A stretch of DNA of 28,265 bases from Egibacteraceae bacterium (GTDB lineage: Bacteria > Actinomycetota > Nitriliruptoria > Euzebyales > Egibacteraceae), in contig DATMKC010000288.1 of assembly GCA_035553555.1 (NCBI GenBank), forward strand, positions 1-28,265, in the 5' to 3' direction. Of this stretch, positions 9,613 to 20,940 are shown piece after piece. The notes under the pieces were generated by a model, which worked only from the letters and a program-made list of their open reading frames with translations, was not told the origin of the DNA and searched no databases. Positions within the stretch are counted from its first letter, which is position 1, and every line of letters starts with the position of its first letter. The translations under genes were made by a program, and so were the position numbers.

Positions 9613-10866
9613 TCAGTGCTGCCAGTCCTCGCGGCGGGCGGACTCGTCGCCGCTGGTGGGCGCGGCGTCGCGCAGCAGGGCGCCGCGCGTCACGGCCTCG
9701 CCGCCGAAGCGGTCCCGCGCCACGTCGGCGGCGCGCTCCAGGCGGCTCCAGCGGTCGTCGGCGGTCAGGGAGAGCTGGCGGCTGGCGTCCTCCGGCACGA
9801 GGTTGGTGACGCCGACGCCGATCAGGCGCACCCGCACCCGCTCCAGGCGCAGCCCCTCCAGCAGGGCCAGCGCCTCGCGGTGCAGTTCCGTGGCCTCCGC
9901 CGTCGGCATCAGCAGGGTGCGGGACCGGGTCACCGTCTCGAAGCTGGCGTAGCGCAGCTTCAGCGTGACCGTGCGCCCGGCGACGTTGCCCTTGCGCAGC
10001 CGCCGCGCGACCTTCTCCGACAGCCGCAGCAGCTCCCGGCGCAGCACCGCGAGGTCATCGACGTCGTGGGCGAACGTCTCCTCGGCGCTCATGCCCTTGG
10101 CCGGCTCGTGCGGGACCACCGGGCGGTCGTCGCGGCCGTCGGCCAGCGTGCGGATCTGGTGGGCCGCCGCCGGGCCGAGCAGCCGCGCCAGCGTCGCCTC
10201 CGGCGTCGCGCGCACGTCCGCGAGCGTGCGGATGGCGAAGCGGTCCAGCTTCGCGGCGGTCTGCTCGCCCACGCCCCACAGGTCGCGCACGGGCAGCGGC
10301 GCCAGGAAGGCGCCGACCTCCTCGGCGCGCAGGTGCAGGATCCCGTCCGGTTTCGCCTTGCCGCTGCACAGCTTGGCCAGGTACTTGTTCGGCGCGATGC
10401 CGACGCTGGACGGCAGGCCCAGCTCGTCGCGGATGCGGCCGCGGACCAGCTCGGCGATGCGCGGCGGCGGCCCCAGCAGGCGCACGCTGCCGCCGACGTC
10501 CAGGAACGCCTCGTCCAGCGACAGCGGCTCGACCAGCGGCGTGACCGCCAGGAAGATCTCGCGGATCCGGCCGGACACGCGCTGGTAGGCGTCGAAGTCC
10601 GGCGGCAGCACCACGGCGTCCGGGCACAGGCGCAGCGCGCGCGCCATCGGCATGGCGGAGCGCACCCCGGCCGCGCGGGCCTCGTAGGAGGCGCTGGCCA
10701 CGACGCCGCGCCCGCCGGTGCCGCCGACGAGCACGGGGCGGCCCAGCAGCGCCGGGTCCTTGCGCGCCTCGACGGACGCGTAGAACGCGTCCATGTCCAC
10801 GTGCAGGATCGGCTCGGCGACGGCCACCCGCCGAGCGTACGTGCGCCGGGCGAGCGTCGCGCTCAT
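9613..10866 (-). CDS. dinB: DNA polymerase IV (Y family, DinB)
   Basis: Catalytic motifs ILHVDMDAFYASVE, VVASASYEAR and EPLSLDEAFLD are intact, plus LAKL..GKAKPDG and LWGVG. C-terminal QLSL is a clamp-binding-type motif. ATG 10866 overlaps the dnaE2 TGA; 417 aa. Confidence 0.95.
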   Translation of the reverse strand: MSATLARRTYARRVAVAEPILHVDMDAFYASVEARKDPALLGRPVLVGGTGGRGVVASASYEARAAGVRSAMPMARALRLCPDAVVLPPDFDAYQRVSGRIREIFLAVTPLVEPLSLDEAFLDVGGSVRLLGPPPRIAELVRGRIRDELGLPSSVGIAPNKYLAKLCSGKAKPDGILHLRAEEVGAFLAPLPVRDLWGVGEQTAAKLDRFAIRTLADVRATPEATLARLLGPAAAHQIRTLADGRDDRPVVPHEPAKGMSAEETFAHDVDDLAVLRRELLRLSEKVARRLRKGNVAGRTVTLKLRYASFETVTRSRTLLMPTAEATELHREALALLEGLRLERVRVRLIGVGVTNLVPEDASRQLSLTADDRWSRLERAADVARDRFGGEAVTRGALLRDAAPTSGDESARREDWQH

Positions 10867-13800
10867 CCCGCCGAGCCGCCGGACCGATGCCACAGCGGGG
10901 TTTGTCTCTCCCCAATGCGCGGGGGCATGCCCGCGATGCGCCCCTGGCGCAGCACCGCGCGCAGGCGGTCGCCGCGCCACGCGTCCAGCAGGTCGCGCAA
11001 GTCCCAGGCGCTGTGCGCGTTGACGGACACGGCGCGCCCGCCGCCGTGGCGCACGCGGCCCTCCACCACCAGCAGCCAGGAGTGGAAGACGGTGTGCGCG
11101 CAGCGCTCCAGCACGCGTTCGAAGAACGCGAGGTCGGCCACGCCGGTGGCGTCGTCCAGCGACAGGAACACCACGCGCTGCCCGGAGCGGATCGGCGGGG
11201 TCTGCGTGGCGACCTTGACGCCCGCGACGCGCACCAGCGCGCCGTCGGGGCGGTCCAGCAGGCCGGCGGCGCGCGTCACGCCGAGCGCCTCCAGCAGCGG
11301 CTCGTAGAAGCTCACCACATGGGCGCTGGCGTCCAGGCCCAGCACCTCGAGTTCGGCGCGCACGCGCTCGCTGAGGGTGTAGTCGGCCAGCCCGGCCGCC
11401 GCCTCGGCGAGGAGCTCGCCCTGCACCGGCTTGGCCGCCGCGGCCTTCGTGCGCGCGCCACTCCAGCGCTCGGCGACCTCCAGCACGATGTCGCGGCGGG
11501 AGCGCCCAGGCGCCAGGCACTCCAGCGCGCCGACGTGCGCGAGCGCCTCGGCGACCGGGGCCGACAGCGCCGAACGGTCCCGCAGGTCCGCCACCGACGT
11601 GAACGGCCGGTGCGCCAGGACCGACTCGATCATGCGCTCGTCGATCCCCGCCACATCGCACAACGCCAGCCTGATGCCGAACCGCACCGACGGCTCCGCC
11701 GGATCACTCCCCAGGTCCGGCACAGCAGACGCTGGAGCCGCCGGGAGGGACGGGGTGGGGCCGGCCCATCGACCGGCGCCGACGTAAAGAGGGTTTCCGG
11801 AGGCGCCGGGAGAATGGGACGGCCCCACCGGCACACCGGGCTCCCTTGCGCCCCCCGCCGGACCCGTTGCGCACCCCGCCATCCCGGCGTGATCTGCCGG
11901 CACACGCTCGACGCGGTAGTCGCGGGCGGAGCGGTTGACGTCCAGCGGCAGCACGGCGACGCCCAGCCGGCGCGCGTCCTCCAAGAGCAGCCGCCGCGGG
12001 TACATGCCGGGATCGTGGGTGAGCAGCCCGGCGACGAACTCCGGCAGGTAGTGGCGCTTGAGCCACGCCGAGCGCCACGTCGGCACGGCGAACGCCGCCG
12101 CGTGCGCCTTGCAGAAGCCGAACGAGGCGAACTGCTCCAGCGCGTGCCACAGCCTGCGCGCCGTCGCCTCGTCGATGCCGCGCTCGGCGCAGCCGGCCAG
12201 GACCCAGTCGCGGATCTCCTCCAGGCGCTCGGCGTCGGACAGGCGCCGGCGCACCAGGTCGGCCACCGCCAGGTCGCAGCCGGTCACCGCGGCCACGCAG
12301 CGCATCACCTGCTCGTGGAACACGATCACGCCGTGGGTCTCCGCCAGCGCCCGCTCCAGGATCGGGTGCGGGTAGACGGTCGGCTCGCGCCCGTGGCGGC
12401 GCGCGACGAACGGCCGCACCATGTCGCCCTTCACCGGCCCGGGGCGGAACAGCGAGATGTCGACCACGAGGTCGTGCAGCTCGGCGGGCTGCAGCCGGCC
12501 GATCAGGTCGCGCTGCCCGGGCGACTCGATCTGGAACATGCCCAGCGTGCGCGTGGAGCGGATCAGCTCGTAGGTGTCCTCGTCGTGCCACGGGATCGCC
12601 GACAGGGCCACGTCCTGGCCGCGCACCCGTCGCACCTCGTCCACGCAGTGCGACATTGCCGACAGCATGCGCACCGCCAGCACGTCCAGCTTGCACAGGC
12701 CGAGCGCCTCGACGTCGTCCTTGTCGAACTGCGCCATCGCGAAGCCGTGCGCGGAATGCTCCATGGGCACCAGGTCGCGCAGGGTGGCGTCGGCCAGCAG
12801 CACGCCCGAGGGGTGCAGCGCGATGTGGCGCGGCAGGCCGTCCAGCGCCTCCACCGCGTCGAACAGGAACGCCAGGTCCGGCCGGTCCAGGTTGCGCCCG
12901 CGCAGCTCCGGCAGGTGGTCCAGCCCCTTGCGCACGTCGCGGGCGCGCAGGTGCGGGAACGCCTTGGCGATCACGTCGATCTCGGCCTGCGGCAGGCCGA
13001 TCGCCTTGCCGGCCTCGCGGATCGCCATGCGCGCCTGGAACGTCTCCACCATGGCGACGCAGGCGACGCGGTCGTCGCCGTAGCGGTCGAGGATGTCGCG
13101 GTAGATGTCCTCCCGGCGCGCCGACTCCACGTCGATGTCGATGTCGGGCAGCTCCTCGCGGTAGGGGTTCATGAAGCGCTCGAACGCGAGGTCGTGCGCG
13201 ATCGGGTCGACGTCGGAGATGCGCAGCGCGTAGATCAGGATGCTGCCGGCGGCCGAGCCGCGGCAGGCGGCGATGATGCCCTTGGAGCGGATGCGCGCGA
13301 CGATCTCGGCGACGGTGAGGAAGTACGGCGCCAGGCCCATGCGCGCGCACATCGCGAGCTCGCGCTCGAACGTGTCCCAGTGGCGCTCGGCCGGGCTGGC
13401 GTAGCGCTCGCGGATGCCGGCCTCGGCGCGCGCCTTGAGCTCCGCCAGCGCGTCCTGCCCCAGCGCGACGAAGTCGGGCACGCGCAGGCGGCCCAGCTCC
13501 AGCTCGGCCTCGCAGCGTTCGGCGACCCACGCGGCGTTGGCGACCGCGTCGGGACGCTCACGGAAGACCTCCGCCATCTCCTCAGGCGTCTTGAGATAGC
13601 CCTGGTCGTTGGCGCGCCCGCGCGCCACGGTGCGCAGCGGCGCCTGGAGGCGCACGGCGTCGAGCACGTCGGCGATGCGCGCGTGCGCGGCGTCGAGGTA
13701 GCGCGGCTCCTGGTTCGCCACGGCGCGCAGGCCCAGCCGGTCGGCCAGCGCGAAGCGCGCGCGGGCGCGGGCGTCGTCGCCGGGCGCCAGGTGGTGCGTC

Positions 13801-14365
13801 ACGCCGACGAGCACGGAGCTCGGCCCGTACACGTCCATCCAGCGGCGCGCCCCGACGCCGCCGCGGCGTCGGGGCGCCCGGCGTCGAGCAGGCGGCCGAC
13901 CGGGGAGTCGTCGCCGAGCAGCACGAACTGCGCGTCCGGGCGGCGCTCCATCTGCGCCCACGTCAGCCGCGGCGTCCCACGGACGGACTCCAGGTGCGCG
14001 TCGGACACGGTGCGCGCCAGGTTGGCGTAGCCCGGCGTGGTGCGCGCGATCAGGGTGACCCGCGAGGGCCCGTCGTCCAGCCACGCCGGGCCGCTGCCGG
14101 GACCGGCGAAGCGGCCGCGCTGGACGCGCGCCGCCCAGCCGGGCCGCGCATCGTCGGGCCGCAGCGCCAGGTCCGCCCCGTAGATCGGCCGCACCCCGGC
14201 GGCCTGGCAGGCCTGCGCCACGCGCACCGCCCCGTACAGGCCATCGCGGTCGGCCACGCCCACGGCGCGCATGCCGCGTTCGGCCACCGCCTGGGCCAGC
14301 TCGCCGGGACGCAGCGCCCCGTGGCGCATCGAGTAGCAGGTCCGTGCGGCGAGGTGAGCGAACAT
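10863..14365 (-). CDS. dnaE2: Error-prone DNA polymerase III alpha paralogue DnaE2 (one-base frameshift near 13850-13870 as sequenced)
   Basis: The PHP domain (MFAHLAARTCYS..GA, ADRDGLYGAV) lies in ORF 13799-14365. The rest lies in ORF 10863-14777: CRGSAAGS, ELPDIDID, KLDVLAVRML, FQIESPGQ, YGFCKAHAA-like FGFCKAHAA, and OB-fold VAGVKVATQTPP..SLDDATG. Length 3503 nt is one base short of 1168 codons. Confidence 0.9.
11754..11829. repeat. Imperfect palindrome inside an in-frame insertion of dnaE2
   Basis: Arms GGTGGGGCCGGCCCATCGACCGGCGCC (11754-11780) and GGCGCCGGGAGAATGGGACGGCCCCACC (11802-11829) surround GACGTAAAGAGGGTTTCCGGA. Confidence 0.7.
13847..13877. repeat. Perfect 14-bp inverted repeat at the dnaE2 frameshift
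   Basis: GCGCCCCGACGCCG-ccg-CGGCGTCGGGGCGC. Confidence 0.85.
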
Positions 14366-14373
14366 GTGTTCGA
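14358..14373. promoter_or_regulatory. LexA (SOS) box overlapping the dnaE2 start codon
   Basis: GCGAACATGTGTTCGA fits the actinobacterial CGAAC-N4-GTTCG consensus. CAGAAT (-10-like) sits 7 nt upstream of the ATG on the minus strand. Confidence 0.9.
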
Positions 14374-14519
14374 TTCTGCTCGCGAACGCACCCGCCCAAC
14401 AGGGTGGAGAGCGGTGTACCGATAGCCCGCCGAGCGGTGCGGCAGCAAGTTTGACCTCGCGCCGTGCGCGGAACCCCCGTACCCTCTGCGCTTCCCCGCC
14501 GCACCCACGAGGAGCCCGC

Positions 14520-15284
14520 ATGGAGCCGGTCTACACGCCCGTCATCGGGGCCGCGAAGACGCTCATCGCCGCCATGAACTGGAAGATCCAGATCCACGGC
14601 GCCGAGCACATCCCCGCGTCGGGCCCGGCGCTGCTGGCGTCCAACCACATCGGCTACCTGGACTTCGTGTTCATCGGCTACGGCGCGCTGGACCGCGGCC
14701 GCATGGTCCGCTTCGCCGCCAAGAAGGAGGTCTTCGACCACAAGGTCTCCGGCCCCCTCATGCGCGGCATGCGGCACATCCAGGTGGACCGCTTCGGCGG
14801 CGCGGACGCCGCCGTGGTCGCCTCGGTCGCCGCCATGCGCCGCGGCGAGGTGATCGGCATGTTCCCGGAGGGCACCATCAGCCGCTCGTTCATCCCGGCC
14901 GCCGGCAAGACCGGCGCGGCGCGCATGGCGATGGACGCGCAGGCGCCGCTGATCCCCACGGCGGTGTGGGGCACCCAGCGCATCCTCACCAAGGGACGCC
15001 CGAAGAACTTCCAGCGCGGCGTCGTGATCGACGTGCGCTACGGCGAGCCGGTCGCCTGCCAGCCCGGCGACGACCCCACCGAGGTCACCAAGCGCCTGAT
15101 GGACGCCATCACCGGCCTGGTCGAGAACGCCGCGCGCGAGTACCCGCAGCGGCCGGCCGGCGACGGCGACCGCTGGTGGCTGCCGGCGTCGATGGGCGGC
15201 ACCGCGCCCACCGTCGAGGAGGCCGAGGCGATGGCCGCGGCGGAACGGGCCGAGCGGCGCGCGAAGCGGCAGCGCGAGGGCTGA
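14520..15284 (+). CDS. 1-acyl-sn-glycerol-3-phosphate acyltransferase (PlsC/LPLAT family)
   Basis: SNHIGYLD (HX4D), FAAKKE, FPEGT and KTGAARMA; GAGGAG SD before ATG 14520. Confidence 0.92.
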   Translation: MEPVYTPVIGAAKTLIAAMNWKIQIHGAEHIPASGPALLASNHIGYLDFVFIGYGALDRGRMVRFAAKKEVFDHKVSGPLMRGMRHIQVDRFGGADAAVVASVAAMRRGEVIGMFPEGTISRSFIPAAGKTGAARMAMDAQAPLIPTAVWGTQRILTKGRPKNFQRGVVIDVRYGEPVACQPGDDPTEVTKRLMDAITGLVENAAREYPQRPAGDGDRWWLPASMGGTAPTVEEAEAMAAAERAERRAKRQREG

Positions 15285-15340
15285 AACCCGGCCGCCCCGC
15301 GCGGCGTCTCACCGGCACGACACGAGCGGGAGGTGGGACG

Positions 15341-15874
15341 ATGCGGATCGCGCTGCTCACGGTGACGTTGGCGCTGGCCGCGGCGTGCGCCGGCCCGGAC
15401 GGCGCGGAGGTGTCCTTCAGCACGCCGCCGGACGACGCCCGCACGCAGGCCGTGCCGCCGGAACCGGCCGCCACGAGGGAGGCGGCCACGCCGGGGGCCG
15501 CCACGGCGAGCGCGGTCCCGGCCCAGACGCCGGGGCCGGCGGCCCCGCGGACCGTCCCGGCCTCGCCCACACCGTCCGGCGGGCCGCGCGAGCTGGGCGC
15601 GGACGAGGACGCCAAGGTCGGCCAGCCGTACCTGTACCGCCTGTACACGCACTGCGGGATCGAGGCGACGTGGTGGAACGGCGCCTGGTGGGACGCCGAC
15701 CCGCCGCTGTCGGACGGCAGCGGCAACCCGCCGCCCGGGTGGGGCAACCCGTACCAGGACGGCGTGATCGTGCAGGTCTCCGAGACGCGGCTGGAGTTCA
15801 CCGGCGACGAGGGACAGCGCGCCGCCTTCCGGCCGCGGCCGGCCGACGTCGGCGCCCCACCCCCCTGCGACTGA
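15341..15874 (+). CDS. Uncharacterised lipoprotein
   Basis: GGAGGT SD, signal peptide with lipobox LAAAC, a Pro/Ala/Thr linker, and a compact C-terminal domain YRLYTHCGI...WWNGAWW...PPPCD. Confidence 0.75.
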   Translation: MRIALLTVTLALAAACAGPDGAEVSFSTPPDDARTQAVPPEPAATREAATPGAATASAVPAQTPGPAAPRTVPASPTPSGGPRELGADEDAKVGQPYLYRLYTHCGIEATWWNGAWWDADPPLSDGSGNPPPGWGNPYQDGVIVQVSETRLEFTGDEGQRAAFRPRPADVGAPPPCD

Positions 15875-15903
15875 CCGGACGTCCACAGATTTCAGCCGGG
15901 TAT

Positions 15904-15941
15904 GGGTGCACTTTCAGAGCGATGACTCTGAGAGTGCACCC
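15904..15941. terminator. Stem-loop between convergent genes; probable bidirectional terminator
   Basis: GGGTGCACTTTCAGAG-cgatga-CTCTGAGAGTGCACCC: 16-bp stem with one wobble, 8 nt from the aceE stop. Confidence 0.75.
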
Positions 15942-15949
15942 AGCGACGG

Positions 15950-18727
15950 TCAGGGCAGCTCGGTGGTCGCGTCCGGGTCGATGCCATAGCGCTCCACTGC
16001 CTCGCGCACCAGCTTGGCCTCCACCGCGCCCTGTTTGGCCAGCTCGTGCAGCGCCGCCAGCGCGACGTGCTCGGCGTCGATGCGGAACAGCCGCCGCAGG
16101 GCCGAGCGCAGGTCGGACCGGCCGAAGCCGTCCGTGCCCAGCACGTGGTACGGCGCCGGCACCCACGGCGCCACCAGCAGCGGCACCGCCTTCTGGTAGT
16201 CCGTCACGGCGATCACCGGCGCGTCACCGGCCCCGCGCAGCGCCTCGGTGACCCACGGCACGCGCGGCTCCTCCTCCGGGTGCAGCAGGTTCCACTCGTC
16301 GCACGCGACGCCCTCGCGGTGCAGTTGCACCCAGCCGGGGGCGGACCACACCTCGGTGCGCACGCCCCAGTCCTCCGCCAGCAGGTCGCGGGCGCGCAGC
16401 GCCGCCGGCATCGCCGAGCCGCTGGTCAGCACGCGCGCCAGCGGCCCGTCGCCGTCGGGCGCCTCCAGGTAGCGGTACAGGCCGCGCAGCACCAGCCGCT
16501 CGTCGAGGCCGTCGGGCATCGGCGGCTGCGGCACCGGCTCGTTGTAGACGGTGAGGTAGTACATGAGGTCAGCACCATGGCCTACCGCTTCGCTGCTTGA
16601 GGCCGGACCGTCGGGGTCGGCCTGGTTGCCGAGCATCCTGTTGATGCCGTCCTCCACGACGACGGCGATCTCGTAGGCGAAGCTCGGGTCGTAGGACACC
16701 ACCGCGGGGTTGGTGGCCGCGTACAGCAGCGAGTGGCCGTCCTCGTGCTGCAGCCCCTCGCCGTTCAGCGTGGTGCGCCCGGCCGTCGCGCCGATCAGGA
16801 ACCCCTTGCAGCGCTGGTCCGCGGCCGACCAGATGAGGTCGGCGGTGCGCTGGAAGCCGAACATCGAATAGAAGACGTAGACCGGCAGCATGTGCTCGCT
16901 GAACGTCGCGTACGCCGAGCCGGCAGCGTGGAACGACGCCATGGAGCCGGCCTCGGTGATCCCCTCGTGCAGGATCTGGCCTTGCGTGGACTCCCGGTAG
17001 GCCAGCAGCATCTCGCGGTCCACCGGCTCGTAGGTCTGCCCGTGCGGCGAGTAGATCTTCTCCGTGGGGAACATCGCGTCCATGCCGAACGTGCGCGCCT
17101 CGTCCGGGATGATCGGCACGATGCGCTTGCCCAGGTCCGGGTGCTTGAGCAGGTCCTTGAGCAGCCGCACGAACGCCATGGTGGTGGCGACGTCGTGCTT
17201 GCCGGAGCCCTGCTTCAGTTCCGCGTAGGCGTCGCGCTCCGGCAGGCTGACCGGGTGCACGCGCACGCGCCTGGCCGGCAGCGGCCCGCCCAGCTCCAGG
17301 CGCCGCTCCAGCATGTACTGGATCTCGTCGGAGTCCTCGCCCGGGTGGTAGTACGGCGGCAGGTCGCTCTCCAGCGCCTCGTCCGGGATGTCCAGGTACA
17401 GCCGGTCGCGGAACTTCTTCAGCGCCTTCTGCGTGAGCTTCTTCATCTGGTGCGTGGCGTTGCGCGCCTCGAAGTCCGGCCCCAGCGTCCAGCCCTTGAT
17501 GGTCTGCGCCAGGATCACGGTGGGCTGGCCGGCGTGGTTCACGGCGGCCTCGTAGGCGGCGTAGACCTTGCCGTAGTCGTGGCCGCCGCGGTCCAGCACC
17601 GGCAGGTCCGCCTCCGTCAGGCTGGACTGCTCCAGGATGCGCCGCAGCTCCGGGGAGTCGAAGAAGTGCTCCCTGATGTAGGCGGCGTCACTGACGCTGT
17701 AGGTCTGGAACTGCCCGTCGGGCGTCGCGTTCATCTTGCTGACCAGCGCCCCCGTGGTGTCCAGCGCCAGCAGCTCGTCCCACTTGCGGCCCCACACCAC
17801 CTTGATGACGTTCCACCCGGCGCCGCGGAACAGCGACTCCATCTCCTGGATGATCTTGCCGTTGCCGCGCACCGGGCCGTCCAGGCGCTGCAGGTTGCAG
17901 TTGACCACCCAGATGAGGTTGTCCAGCTCCTCGCGGGCGGCGACCGTCAGCGCGCCCTGGGACTCGGGCTCGTCCATCTCGCCGTCGCCCACGAACGCCC
18001 ACACGCGCGAGTCGCCGGTGTCGGCGATGCCGCGGTGGTGCAGGTAGCGGTTGAAGCGGGCCTGGTAGATGGAGTTGATCGGGCCCAGCCCCATGGAGAC
18101 GGTGGGGAACTCCCAGAAGTGCGGCATGAGGCGCGGGTGCGGGTAGCTGGGCAGCCCGGCGCGGCCGTCGGACGTGCGGCGCGTCTCCTGGCGGAACAGG
18201 TCCAGATGCTCCTCGCTGAGCCGCCCCTCCAGGTAGGCGCGCGCGTAGATGCCCGGTGAGGCGTGGCCCTGGAAGAAGATCTGGTCGCCGTGGCGCGGGT
18301 CGTCGGACGTGCCCTTGCCGCGGAAGAAGTGGTTGAAGCCGACCTCGTACAGCGACGCCGACGAGGCGTACGTGGCGATGTGGCCGCCGACGCCGATGTC
18401 GGGCCGGTTCGCGCGGCTGACCATGACCGCGGCGTTCCAGCGGATGTAGGCGCGGATGCGCCGCTCGATGTACTCGTCGCCGGGGAACGGCGGCTCGCGG
18501 TCCGGCGGGATCGTGTTGATGTAGTCGGTGGAGCGCAGGTGCGGCACGCCGACCTGCTGCTCGCGGGCGCGTTCCAGCACGCGCAGCAGCAGGTAGCGGG
18601 CGCGCTGGCGCCCCTCGCGCTGGACCACCGCGTCCAGGGACTCGATCCACTCGCGGGTCTCCTGGGGGTCCACGTCGGGGAGCTGGGTCGGCATCCCGTC
18701 CGTGATCACTGGCTTGCGGTCGGTCAC
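15950..18727 (-). CDS. aceE: Pyruvate dehydrogenase E1 component, homodimeric AceE type
   Basis: [44 protein letters not shown]-binding [17 protein letters not shown] and [10 protein letters not shown]. Start set at GTG 18727 after AGGAAGGA. Confidence 0.96.
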
Positions 18728-18849
18728 AGCGCTGGTCCTTCCTGCGTGCACGTGCGCCTCGCGCGCCATGTCGCGGCGGTCGGGCGCCCTTTTGCGCCAG
18801 TCTTCCACCATCGGCGGGGCCGCGCCGGGTACCTTGCCCGCTGTTCCCG

Positions 18850-19335
18850 ATGACCAAAGACCCAGGCGAGGCGATGCCCGTGCACGGCGGACGGACGTGG
18901 GTGCTGGCGGCTGTGCTGTGCGTCGCCCTGGCCGCCTGCGGCGGCGGGGCGGAGCCCGGCTCGGAGACGTCGGTGTTCCGCATCCGGCCCGGCGACTGCT
19001 TCAACGACCCGCCGGCGGAGCGGCAGCTGGACCAGGTCGACGTGGTGCGCTGCGACCAGCCGCACGACAACGAGGTGTTCGCGGCGATCGAGCACCCCGC
19101 CGCGCCGGAGGAGCCGTTCCCCGGCCGCGACGCGCTGGTGGGCTACGCCGAGCAGGGCTGCCCGGAGCCGTTCGCGGACTACGTCGGCGCGACGTACGAC
19201 CAGTCGCGCTTCTCGCTGTTCCCGATCGTGCCGAGCGCGGACACGTGGGCGAAGGGCGACCGCCAGATCATCTGCGCGCTGTACGACCACCGGGCCGGCA
19301 AGCTGACCGGCTCCGTGCGCGGCTCAGGCCAGTAG
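18850..19335 (+). CDS. Septum formation family (Septum_form) lipoprotein
   Basis: Lipobox LAAC, then [19 protein letters not shown] and [12 protein letters not shown]. The start could instead be ATG 18874. Confidence 0.75.
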
Positions 19336-19944
19336 CGCGCGGACGCGGCGCAGATCATCGACGAAGTCGGCGCGCTGCGCGGCGCGGCGCTCGCCGGCGC
19401 GCAGGATCGACGAGGGGTGCACGGTGGCGACGTAGCGCACGCCGTCGCGCTCGTGCACCTGGCCGCGCTCGCGCGTCACCCGGAAGGAGCGTCCCAGCAG
19501 GCCCTGCGCGGCGGTGGCGCCGAGCGGCACGACCAGTTCCGGGCGGACCACGGCGAGCTCCGCCTCCAGCCACGGCCGGCACGCCTCGACGTGCTCGGCG
19601 TTCGGCTTGGCGTGGATGCGCTTGCCGCCCTTGCCCGCCTGCGCTTTCCAGCGGAAGTGCTTGACGATGTTGGTGAGGTAGACGTCGGCGCGGGCGATGC
19701 CGGCCTCCTCCAGGGCCTCGTCCAGCAGGCGGCCGGCCGGCCCCACGAACGGGTGCCCCTCGCGGTCCTCGCGGTCGCCGGGCTGCTCGCCCACCAGCAG
19801 CAGCCGCGCCCGCCGCGGCCCCTCGCCGAACACGGTCTGCGTACCGGTGCGCCACAGCTCGCAGGCCTGGCAGCCGGCCGCGGCCTCGCGCAGCTTCGGC
19901 AGCGTGGGGCGCTCCGGGACCAGCGCCGCCGCCGTGGCGCTCAC
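19324..19944 (-). CDS. udgX: UdgX-type family 4 uracil-DNA glycosylase (Fe-S)
   Basis: CQAC, motif A GEQPG, TNIVKHF, extended R-loop GGKRIH, C-x-PWL and motif B HPSSILR. GTG 19944 overlaps the DUF1028 stop; 206 aa. Confidence 0.85.
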   Translation of the reverse strand: MSATAAALVPERPTLPKLREAAAGCQACELWRTGTQTVFGEGPRRARLLLVGEQPGDREDREGHPFVGPAGRLLDEALEEAGIARADVYLTNIVKHFRWKAQAGKGGKRIHAKPNAEHVEACRPWLEAELAVVRPELVVPLGATAAQGLLGRSFRVTRERGQVHERDGVRYVATVHPSSILRAGERRAAQRADFVDDLRRVRALLA

Positions 19945-20627
19945 ACCAGCCCCGCGTGGTCGTCGGCGTGCAGGCCGCCCTGGCTGTCCTGGCGCGTCGG
20001 CAGCCGCAGGATCTGGGGCAGCAGCGTCTCGGCGATGTCGTCGCGCAGGTCGGTCAGCGCCTCCAGCGGCCGGTCGCTGTCGTCGATGCGCAGGTCCCAC
20101 AGCGGGTAGCGCTCGGTGGCCACCACGAGGACCGACGCCGAGCGGGCGCCGCGCCGGTCCCCGCCGGCCTTCTCCCCCGCGATCAGCGCGCCGATGAGCC
20201 GGTCGACGAGGTCGCTGCCGGGCGACCCGGCGTAGGCCTCCAGGCAGGCGTCCAGCGTCTCGGGGCCCTCCAGCAGGTTGCCCTGGACGGCGACGTCCTG
20301 CTCGCTGCGGTGGCCGGCCCAGCGCTCGCAGCGCTCGCCGGTGTAGGCGGCGCTGGTGCCGTGCGCGTCGACCATGCCGACCTGGCGCAGGCGCCGGTCG
20401 TCGTCCATGGCGACCACGGCGCGCAGCGTGCGCTCTGCGGGGTGGCCGTTGCCCATGAGGTCCAGACCGTCGACGCCCAGGTAGGGGTTCACCCAGGCCT
20501 GCGTGGCCACCGCGCCGACGCCCGCCTCCGCCCAGGTGACGAGCTGGCCGACGCCGGGCGTGCCGGTCACCGCACCGACGCCGAGCTGCCCGGTGCGCGC
20601 GCAGCGCGCGACGATCGAGAACGTCAT
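19941..20627 (-). CDS. DUF1028 family protein (Ntn-hydrolase-like)
   Basis: MTFSIVARC..TGQLGV, AGVGAVATQ, RQVGMVD..G..AAYTG, VQGNLL and GGDRRG..SA. Confidence 0.88.
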   Translation of the reverse strand: MTFSIVARCARTGQLGVGAVTGTPGVGQLVTWAEAGVGAVATQAWVNPYLGVDGLDLMGNGHPAERTLRAVVAMDDDRRLRQVGMVDAHGTSAAYTGERCERWAGHRSEQDVAVQGNLLEGPETLDACLEAYAGSPGSDLVDRLIGALIAGEKAGGDRRGARSASVLVVATERYPLWDLRIDDSDRPLEALTDLRDDIAETLLPQILRLPTRQDSQGGLHADDHAGLV

Positions 20628-20650
20628 GGCGTGCTGCTACCCGGTGCGGC

Positions 20651-20902
20651 TCAGTCCCAGACGCGGTCCAGCCGCCAGGCGCCGCCCTCGCGCACCAGCT
20701 CGTAGACGCCGGCGCCCACCTCCACGCGCCACAGGTCGCGCTGGGGCACCGCCATGCCGCCGCCCTCCCACCAGCCGGCGTCCTCCCGCCAGTGGCCCAG
20801 CACGCCCCGCACGCGGTAGGCGGCGCCACGCCAGCGGAACGCCGACGGGGCGCCCCGCTCGGTGGTCTGCACCTCGACGGGCTCGCGGTAGCGCTTGCTC
20901 AT
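20651..20902 (-). CDS. Stand-alone DUF6504 / ImuB C-terminal-like small protein
   Basis: 83 aa: MSKRYREPVEV..PSAFRWRGAAYRVRGVLGHWREDAGWW....RDLWRVE...VYEL....WRLDRVWD. The WW..RD.W/Y..W pattern resembles the ImuB-C tail. An in-frame GTG at 20932 is an alternative start. Confidence 0.75.
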   Translation of the reverse strand: MSKRYREPVEVQTTERGAPSAFRWRGAAYRVRGVLGHWREDAGWWEGGGMAVPQRDLWRVEVGAGVYELVREGGAWRLDRVWD

Positions 20903-20924
20903 CGCCGCCTGGCCTCGCACCCTG

Positions 20925-20940
20925 TCGAACACATGTTCGC
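20925..20940. promoter_or_regulatory. LexA (SOS) box upstream of the DUF6504 gene
   Basis: TCGAACACATGTTCGC, the exact reverse complement of the box at 14358-14373. TACCGT (-10-like) lies at 20947-20942 on the minus strand. Confidence 0.9.

Follow-up and report, generated by a model that had tools for sequence, protein, structure and literature searches.

In mycobacteria, mutasomes built around the polymerase DnaE2 drive drug resistance and the mutagenesis that follows DNA damage. In the canonical system, DnaE2 is accompanied by ImuA and by ImuB, a catalytically dead Y-family protein with a fused C-terminal domain (ImuB-C). ImuB-C and its stand-alone forms were defined by Aravind et al. in 2013 (PMC3765255), and variants that lack ImuA and have a Y-family polymerase (PolY) that is either active or not, a stand-alone ImuB-C, and/or DnaE2 were described by Timinskas and Venclovas in 2019 (PMC6511836). 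The section of a 2026 polymerase census in Nucleic Acids Research that deals with one of these variants, DnaE2B-PolY-[ImuB-C]-RecA, places it in Actinobacteria only (PMC12926913, section 20). The exemplar there is Tessaracoccus lapidicaptus, for which the relevant part of the supplement gives a "good tetramer" model (PMC12926913). Here we consider a 28,265-nucleotide contig (the window) from a metagenome-assembled genome (MAG) of a soil bacterium of the Egibacteraceae, which encodes DnaE2, DinB, and a small protein of the DUF6504 family. We think it quite probable that this locus is an actinobacterial DnaE2B-PolY-[ImuB-C]-RecA putative mutasome in two LexA-repressed units, which would be expressed together once LexA repression is lifted and whose products would contact each other.

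The MAG (GCA_035553555.1), 70% complete, comprises 468 contigs that total 2.47 Mb; the window is its contig C288, with a G+C content of about 75%. We searched 40 genomes of relatives, from the Egibacteraceae and other Nitriliruptoria. The counts below cover two unpublished genomes, G018 and G019, on neither of which any conclusion rests. The genes and sites of interest, with all five genes on the minus strand, are as follows.

9613..10866, minus strand: dinB (PolY), 417 amino acids (P0002), with Pfam domains IMS, IMS_C, and IMS_HHH
10863..14365, minus strand: dnaE2 of the DnaE2B type, about 1167 amino acids, with Pfam domains DNA_pol3_alpha, finger, HHH_6, and OB
13854..13855, minus strand: two frame-breaking bases in dnaE2, without counterpart in independent contigs
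14358..14373, minus strand: putative LexA box TCGAACACATGTTCGC, which contains the ATG of dnaE2 (14365-14363)
19324..19950, minus strand: gene for a UdgX-family uracil-DNA-binding protein (Pfam UDG, E = 2.9e-38; TIGR03914, 256 bits, cut-off 190)
19941..20627, minus strand: DUF1028 gene (Pfam DUF1028, E = 4e-68)
20651..20902, minus strand: ImuB-C (DUF6504, PF20114), 83 amino acids, predicted all-beta barrel (P0001)
20925..20940, plus strand: putative LexA box TCGAACACATGTTCGC, 22 nucleotides upstream of the ImuB-C start codon

This gene content resembles the Tessaracoccus type of DnaE2B-PolY-[ImuB-C]-RecA: the window has a DnaE2B, an apparently active PolY core, and a stand-alone ImuB-C, and our domain search of the window found neither imuA nor imuB, as a first-pass annotation of the letters alone had reported. 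Unlike in the exemplar, the ImuB-C gene lies outside the polymerase operon, 6.3 kb upstream, where it has its own LexA box and precedes the genes for DUF1028 and UdgX. The consecutive accessions given for the Tessaracoccus proteins in the census suggest a single operon, which is also the arrangement in our relatives G038-G040. So, what is specific to this locus is that ImuB-C is displaced by 6.3 kb, has its own SOS box, and heads a unit with UdgX. In the census entries that we compared, Egibacter rhizosphaerae and Euzebya pacifica each have one DnaE2B and one PolY-core, and E. rhizosphaerae, which belongs to the same family as our bacterium, has no DnaE2A (PMC12926913). The census passages on the DnaE2B-PolY-[ImuB-C] group contain no discussion of SOS boxes (PMC12926913).

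The locus shares some features with the mycobacterial ImuA'-ImuB-DnaE2 system, in which DnaE2 is the mutagenic polymerase and expression is SOS-inducible; for our locus, both properties are predicted. In both systems, a Y-family protein carries a clamp motif, which is joined by a RecA-NT-type motif in the mycobacterial system and possibly in ours, and the ImuB-C barrel is predicted to sit on the PHP domain of DnaE2. Unlike the mycobacterial mutasome, our locus lacks ImuA', its Y-family protein retains the catalytic residues, and its ImuB-C is a separate protein of 83 amino acids. Its DnaE2 also belongs to a different clade, with just 31-38% identity to the other DnaE paralogs of the relatives. 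Neither in the window nor in the rest of the 70%-complete MAG did we find the canonical combination of ImuA and a dead ImuB with a fused ImuB-C.

Two other systems also share features with the locus. The dnaE2-dinB2 pair of Streptomyces (DnaE2B-iPolY-RecA), which the first-pass annotation rightly cited as a precedent for pairing these genes, is another case of translationally coupled dnaE2 and dinB in an actinobacterium, but DinB2 is not catalytically active, and no ImuB-C was identified as its partner (PMC6511836). Geobacter's lexA-imuB-C-polY operon (PolY-ImuB-C-RecA) resembles our locus in having a stand-alone ImuB-C and an active PolY under SOS control, but it lacks DnaE2.

We identified the 83-amino-acid protein, whose gene (20902-20651) the first-pass annotation had correctly placed 6.3 kb from dnaE2 and assigned to DUF6504, by its domain and its predicted fold. 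It matches PF20114 with E = 2.9e-14 (53.6 bits, versus a cut-off of 24.2). All 485 of its close homologs stand alone and contain PF20114; several are from MAGs of Egibacteraceae, and one was labelled "protein ImuB" by JGI. The invariant positions of the family lie in GHWRED, QRDLWRV, and a C-terminal W.L.R.WD. The AlphaFold model (pLDDT 94.9) is all-beta, with ten strands. Among the Swiss-Prot models in AFDB, it is similar to ImuB from Caulobacter (TM = 0.70 by query, in output that gives no aligned range within ImuB), while the others score 0.35 or below; PF20114 also has a match in the Caulobacter genome, which we used as a control. Among the AFDB clusters, the model matches DUF6504 proteins as well as "UmuC domain-containing" proteins of 426-438 amino acids (TM = 0.73-0.78). 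In the ESM Atlas, it matches a cluster named "putative Protein ImuB" (508 amino acids, with IMS in 97% of members; TM = 0.80) and a cluster of 485 amino acids with IMS in 82% of members and DUF6504 in 23% (TM = 0.80). Because the modeled structure, the co-occurrence of the Pfam domains, and the published homology (PMC3765255) agree, we conclude that the predicted fold is that of the C-terminal domain of ImuB. The structural similarity that had been suggested as a check on the first-pass annotation is therefore present, with TM scores of 0.70-0.80. We found no match in the PDB at E ≤ 0.001, which agrees with the description of ImuB-C as a novel beta-barrel in the census passages on it (PMC12926913). 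An exhaustive search of representative sequences could not show fusions: among the 150 matches listed of 882, all were stand-alone proteins of 57-238 amino acids. As a separate observation, the ESM Atlas also contains a 269-amino-acid CinA-family cluster from Chloroflexota that matches the ImuB-C model (TM = 0.81 by query), which suggests a fusion of CinA with an ImuB-C-like domain.

The distribution of DUF6504 across the relatives links it to this type of DnaE2. DUF6504 is present in 32 of the 40 genomes, and an ortholog of the window's DnaE2 (50-75% identity) is also present in 32; 31 genomes have both and 7 have neither. The two exceptions are G004 (83% complete), which has DUF6504 only, and G026, which has the DnaE2 ortholog only. 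This co-occurrence had been proposed as a check on the first-pass annotation. All seven of the genomes without either gene carry an ImuB-like gene with a weak IMS match, and none of their DnaE proteins comes closer to the window's DnaE2 than 34-38% identity. A DnaE paralog is on the same contig as the ImuB-like gene in at least four of them. None of the 40 genomes has both types of system.

Gene order gives a similar picture. Both genes are on one contig in 18 of the relatives, and in every case they share a strand, with DUF6504 upstream of dnaE2. They are 5.7-21 kb apart in 15 of these relatives (families f1 and f3) and immediate neighbors in the other three (G038, G039, and G040, all from family f4). 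The shared strand and order, along with the adjacency in f4, suggest that the ancestor had an imuB-C-dnaE2-polY operon, which insertions later broke up.

The displacement of ImuB-C also admits another explanation, which is that it is not a partner of DnaE2 at all. In that case, ImuB-C and UdgX (and DUF1028) would make up an SOS repair unit of their own, in which ImuB-C might be a damage sensor or adaptor in the processing of uracil, abasic sites, or DNA-protein crosslinks, and dnaE2-dinB would be a DnaE2B-PolY-RecA system without ImuB-C. With its gene 6.3 kb from dnaE2 and at the head of another unit, ImuB-C may have other partners, and the UdgX gene follows DUF6504 directly in six relatives (G006, G008, G009, G017, G019, and G024). 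Solo ImuB-C proteins are encoded beside many non-polymerase repair genes, and a role in sensing damage was proposed for them (Aravind et al., PMC3765255). DnaE2B-PolY without ImuB-C is known from Bacteroidetes and Streptomyces (PMC6511836), and G026 has DnaE2B-PolY with no detectable DUF6504. (In G026, which is from the same order as the window and has a G+C content of about 52%, dnaE2-polY lies behind two tandem LexA boxes; locus L040, G026:C2, 3686-3730.) On the other hand, the co-occurrence with DnaE2B is nearly perfect, with joint absence from seven genomes, and the genes are directly adjacent in a sister family (G038-G040). The predicted contact between the two proteins, which is described below, uses an invariant motif. 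Also, UdgX follows ImuB-C in only some of the relatives: in others, aceE is directly after DUF6504, and only the window has DUF1028 between DUF6504 and UdgX. Overall, we consider a separate repair unit to be unlikely.

As for the canonical components, ImuB and ImuA' had no match in the MAG (70% complete), and searches for imuA and imuB found neither in the complete or near-complete genomes G022, G036, and G030, with G027 as the positive control; one marginal match of 17 bits was in G040. So, a complete imuA-imuB elsewhere in the genome, which would have counted against the first-pass annotation, was not found in the MAG or in the complete relatives. G027 encodes a 235-amino-acid open reading frame (ORF), a putative ImuA', directly upstream of its ImuB-like gene. 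When used as the query, this protein found nothing in the MAG, G022, G036, or G030. In genus g26, the three of five genomes that we inspected have ImuB-like open frames of 549-598 amino acids. Within the same family as the window, G005 and G020 carry an ImuB-like or iPolY cassette instead. The cassette of G020, a genome that lacks DnaE2B and DUF6504 (locus L032, G020:C247, 4556-5065, minus strand), is an observation in its own right: a 401-amino-acid PolY with a weak IMS match is followed by a small ORF and a DnaE2 paralog (37% identity), and the small ORF has a weak match to an HMM for ImuB-C (E = 0.005 at Z = 1e5). This arrangement resembles the published "DnaE2X" type of split ImuB.

The window's DnaE2 falls, by sequence identity, in the DnaE2B clade: it is 50-75% identical to the orthologs in 32 relatives (68% to that of G022) and 31-38% identical to the other DnaE paralogs of the relatives (DnaE1 and the DnaE2A-type copy). 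It scores 750 bits against NF004225, the NCBIfam model for "error-prone DNA polymerase," which is under the cut-off of 939. The aspartates of the polymerase site are present (PDIDID at 407 and KLDVL at 559), and the metal ligands of the PHP domain are degenerate, which is usual for DnaE2. A stretch of about 70-75 codons that is rich in proline, glycine, and alanine (11682-11903) lies between YRVER and FGIRLAL; the DnaE2 matches of many relatives are also split near there, so this region is variable.

In the MAG assembly, dnaE2 is in two frames: 14365-13856 encodes the N-terminal 170 codons and 13853-10863 encodes 996 codons. This raises the alternative of a decaying locus, in which dnaE2 is a true frameshifted pseudogene and a canonical imuA-imuB-dnaE2 lies in the unassembled 30% of the genome. 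The frameshift is present in the assembly, the MAG is 70% complete, and two members of the same family (G005 and G020) have the ImuB-like or iPolY cassette instead. To set against this, we compared positions 13400-14400 to Logan's independent assemblies of public runs. In runs X1 and X4, the sole contig over the break site lacks the two bases at 13854. Removing these bases joins ...PDAAAA to GARRWMDVYGPSS, which is collinear, without any insertion or deletion, with ...PDAAAAEARRWLELVGPSS of the intact ortholog in G006. Also, the G+C content at third codon positions (GC3) is 0.9-1.0 in the respective frame on either side of the break, and the two types of system are not found together in any of the 40 genomes. 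Because the independent contigs lack the two bases and the restored frame is collinear with G006, the break is most probably an assembly artifact or a minor variant. We therefore rejected a real pseudogene as the likeliest reading, and we consider a decaying locus with a hidden canonical system to be very improbable. The first-pass annotation's coupling of dnaE2 to dinB holds at the junction, where the stop codon of one and the start codon of the other overlap as ATGA (10866-10863, minus strand); it had overlooked that dnaE2 is not a single open frame in the assembly.

DinB matches IMS with E = 1.4e-50 and IMS_C with E = 1.2e-31, and it passes NCBIfam's equivalog model for Pol IV (NF002751; 396 bits, cut-off 371). 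As noted at first pass, it retains the catalytic Asp/Glu motifs (DMDAFYASVE and SLDEAFLDV) and a clamp-type QLSL motif (within RQLSLT, residues 372-377). Judging from these motifs, DinB is apparently a catalytically intact Y-family polymerase of the Pol IV type. The orthologs in 17 relatives retain the catalytic motifs, and nearly all of them retain RQLxL, which is followed by a conserved tail, DDRW..LERAAD.AR.RFG..AVTRGALL. The LERAADxARxRFGxxAVTRGALL part of the tail resembles the N-terminus of the MAG's RecA (EKALDMALGQIEKQFGKGAIMR), which is what the published "RecA-NT motif" predicts. In an aside about this RecA, its match in the genome (C468:649-2724) is in two pieces, about 1.27 kb apart, within one 804-amino-acid open frame, a pattern that looks like an intein insertion.

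The MAG has no IMS match other than DinB, and in most of the relatives the Y-family gene linked to dnaE2 is the single one. The intact active site may therefore simply reflect ordinary Pol IV duty, DinB being the sole Y-family polymerase in most of these genomes. If so, the two genes could be co-regulated without forming a complex, with DinB as an ordinary and independent Pol IV that shares an SOS transcript with dnaE2, and there would be no split ImuB-like scaffold. Because DinB passes the Pol IV equivalog, its intact active site would need no special explanation, and the evidence for the RecA-NT motif is weak. Against this, the linkage of dnaE2 and polY is maintained across the class and includes a stop/start overlap at our locus; the C-terminal tail of DinB beyond the clamp motif is strongly conserved; and the census, in its part on this type of system, gives multimer models (PMC12926913). 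We view mere co-regulation as improbable, and more so than a separate repair unit for ImuB-C.

Both units are probably under LexA control, as judged by their upstream sequences. The MAG encodes LexA (on contig C407), and we used the actinobacterial consensus for the LexA box, TCGAAC-N4-GTTCGA. Exact matches to TCGAACACATGTTCG are at just two sites in the window, 14359-14373 on the minus strand and 20925-20939 on the plus strand; when up to two mismatches are allowed, there are 23 matches, as compared to 6.0 ± 2.6 in shuffled sequences. With the C that follows, both exact sites are the same 16-mer, TCGAACACATGTTCGC, in inverted orientation with respect to the two minus-strand genes, as described in the first-pass annotation. 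In G006 and G026, dnaE2 is likewise preceded by LexA boxes, and in 25 of 28 distinct loci from the relatives, DUF6504 has a box with up to two mismatches within the 200 nucleotides upstream.

The box at 20925-20940 adjoins a -10-like TACCGT; our search for sigma-70-like promoters and terminators around the ImuB-C unit found none. The ImuB-C, DUF1028, and UdgX genes probably form one SOS transcript. At dnaE2, a -10-like CAGAAT directly precedes the box that holds the ATG, so it is plausible that the transcript is leaderless and that LexA represses it by occlusion. The alignment of the N-terminus of DnaE2, MFAHLAARTCYS, with VPGFAHLAARTCYS of the intact ortholog from G006 supports this start codon.

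The first-pass annotation also pointed out that the two boxes are identical. The identity is real and is no special link between the units: eight more sites in the MAG have the same TCGAACACATGTTCG core as a perfect palindrome, TCGAACACATGTTCGA (on contigs C119, C166, C217, C236, C260, C287, C322, and C402), versus one site for a reversed-pattern control. We therefore rejected the identical boxes as a private link between the units; going by these sites, their identity is that of the organism's tight SOS consensus. The eight palindromes all share a central ACAT/ATGT, which makes this an unusually uniform set of SOS boxes.

To consider how ImuB-C might contact DnaE2, we used the intact pair of proteins from G006, where DnaE2 has 71% identity to that of the window. 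The predicted complex of residues 1-330 of DnaE2 with ImuB-C scored 0.39, as compared to 0.00 for the best control, for a verdict of "weak support"; a pass at 0.60 or below is wrong in more cases than it is right, save where the guess was likely beforehand. Of 78 solved complexes, 51 attained this mark, as did 2 of 108 mismatched pairs. The contacts predicted with confidence are with the invariant GHWRED and the PQ of PQRDLW on ImuB-C, and with residues 191-265, in the PHP region, on DnaE2. These agree with the published models, which place ImuB-C on the PHP domain of DnaE2 according to the parts of the census on this system (PMC12926913), but this agreement is not independent proof. Of the complex of DnaE2, DinB, and the clamp whose modeling had been suggested at first pass, the prediction covers the DnaE2 PHP region with ImuB-C.

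Several results weigh against a DnaE2B-PolY-[ImuB-C]-RecA mutasome, beyond those given above for a separate repair unit. When we compared the DUF6504 alignment to the C-termini of the relatives' ImuB2 proteins with hhalign, the probability was 0.3, from shallow alignments, albeit in the expected register. An HMM built from 110 stand-alone homologs had no match on three ImuB2 proteins from the relatives, even with the filters off, and Pfam at E ≤ 10 found no DUF6504 in the relatives' ImuB2 proteins. The resemblance of DinB's tail to the N-terminus of RecA is weak by BLASTP (E = 0.034 for a single comparison), and Pfam's DUF4113 did not match in the tail. The score for the complex is a weak pass and is from a 71%-identical ortholog instead of the window's own gene. 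The MAG is only 70% complete, and dnaE1 was not found in it either. Finally, what is known of the DnaE2B-PolY-[ImuB-C] variant comes from computation.

Despite these points, we favor the two-unit mutasome, which might work as follows. Upon DNA damage, RecA would stimulate the cleavage of LexA, which would release both the dnaE2-dinB unit and the imuB-C-DUF1028-udgX unit. The beta-barrel of ImuB-C would bind the degenerate PHP domain of DnaE2 via its invariant GHWRED/PQRD surface. The Pol IV-type DinB would supply the beta-clamp motif (QLSL), which is ImuB's part in the canonical system, while its RecA-NT-like tail would take over from the missing ImuA in binding RecA. This would bring DnaE2 to stalled forks, presumably with a mutagenic output. 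The first-pass annotation had proposed that the role of ImuB is split between an active Pol IV and a free ImuB-C, and this is supported by the predicted fold, by the co-occurrence, and by the lack of matches to imuA and imuB. This type of system had already been described computationally in 2019 and 2026, so the split mutasome with two active polymerases is a correct rediscovery.

UdgX covalently cross-links itself to uracil or abasic sites in DNA. Because it also shares a putatively LexA-controlled unit with ImuB-C, we can speculate that ImuB-C moved out of the polymerase operon in Egibacteraceae and Euzebyales and became a shared SOS adaptor, which would bring DnaE2 and Pol IV to UdgX-DNA adducts or similar protein-DNA cross-links. 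This is a long shot. If it were true, the ImuB-C adaptor would connect the marking of lesions with their mutagenic bypass, carried out by two active polymerases.

Between the two units are a divergent acyltransferase gene, aceE, and a septum-formation gene. Elsewhere the window encodes mraZ, thiE, MoxR/DUF58 genes, and the genes for a protein kinase and an HNH nuclease.

Because the system type and its predicted complex were already published, the locus opens no new question. Its practical value is that it points to a cultivable relative, Egibacter rhizosphaerae. It is a well-conserved example from the Nitriliruptoria, with clear SOS boxes at both units, and within this class ImuB-C stays evolutionarily tied to DnaE2 even across a displacement of 6-21 kb. 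How the canonical system may have been assembled is shown by variants with ImuB split into an active polymerase and a free ImuB-C.

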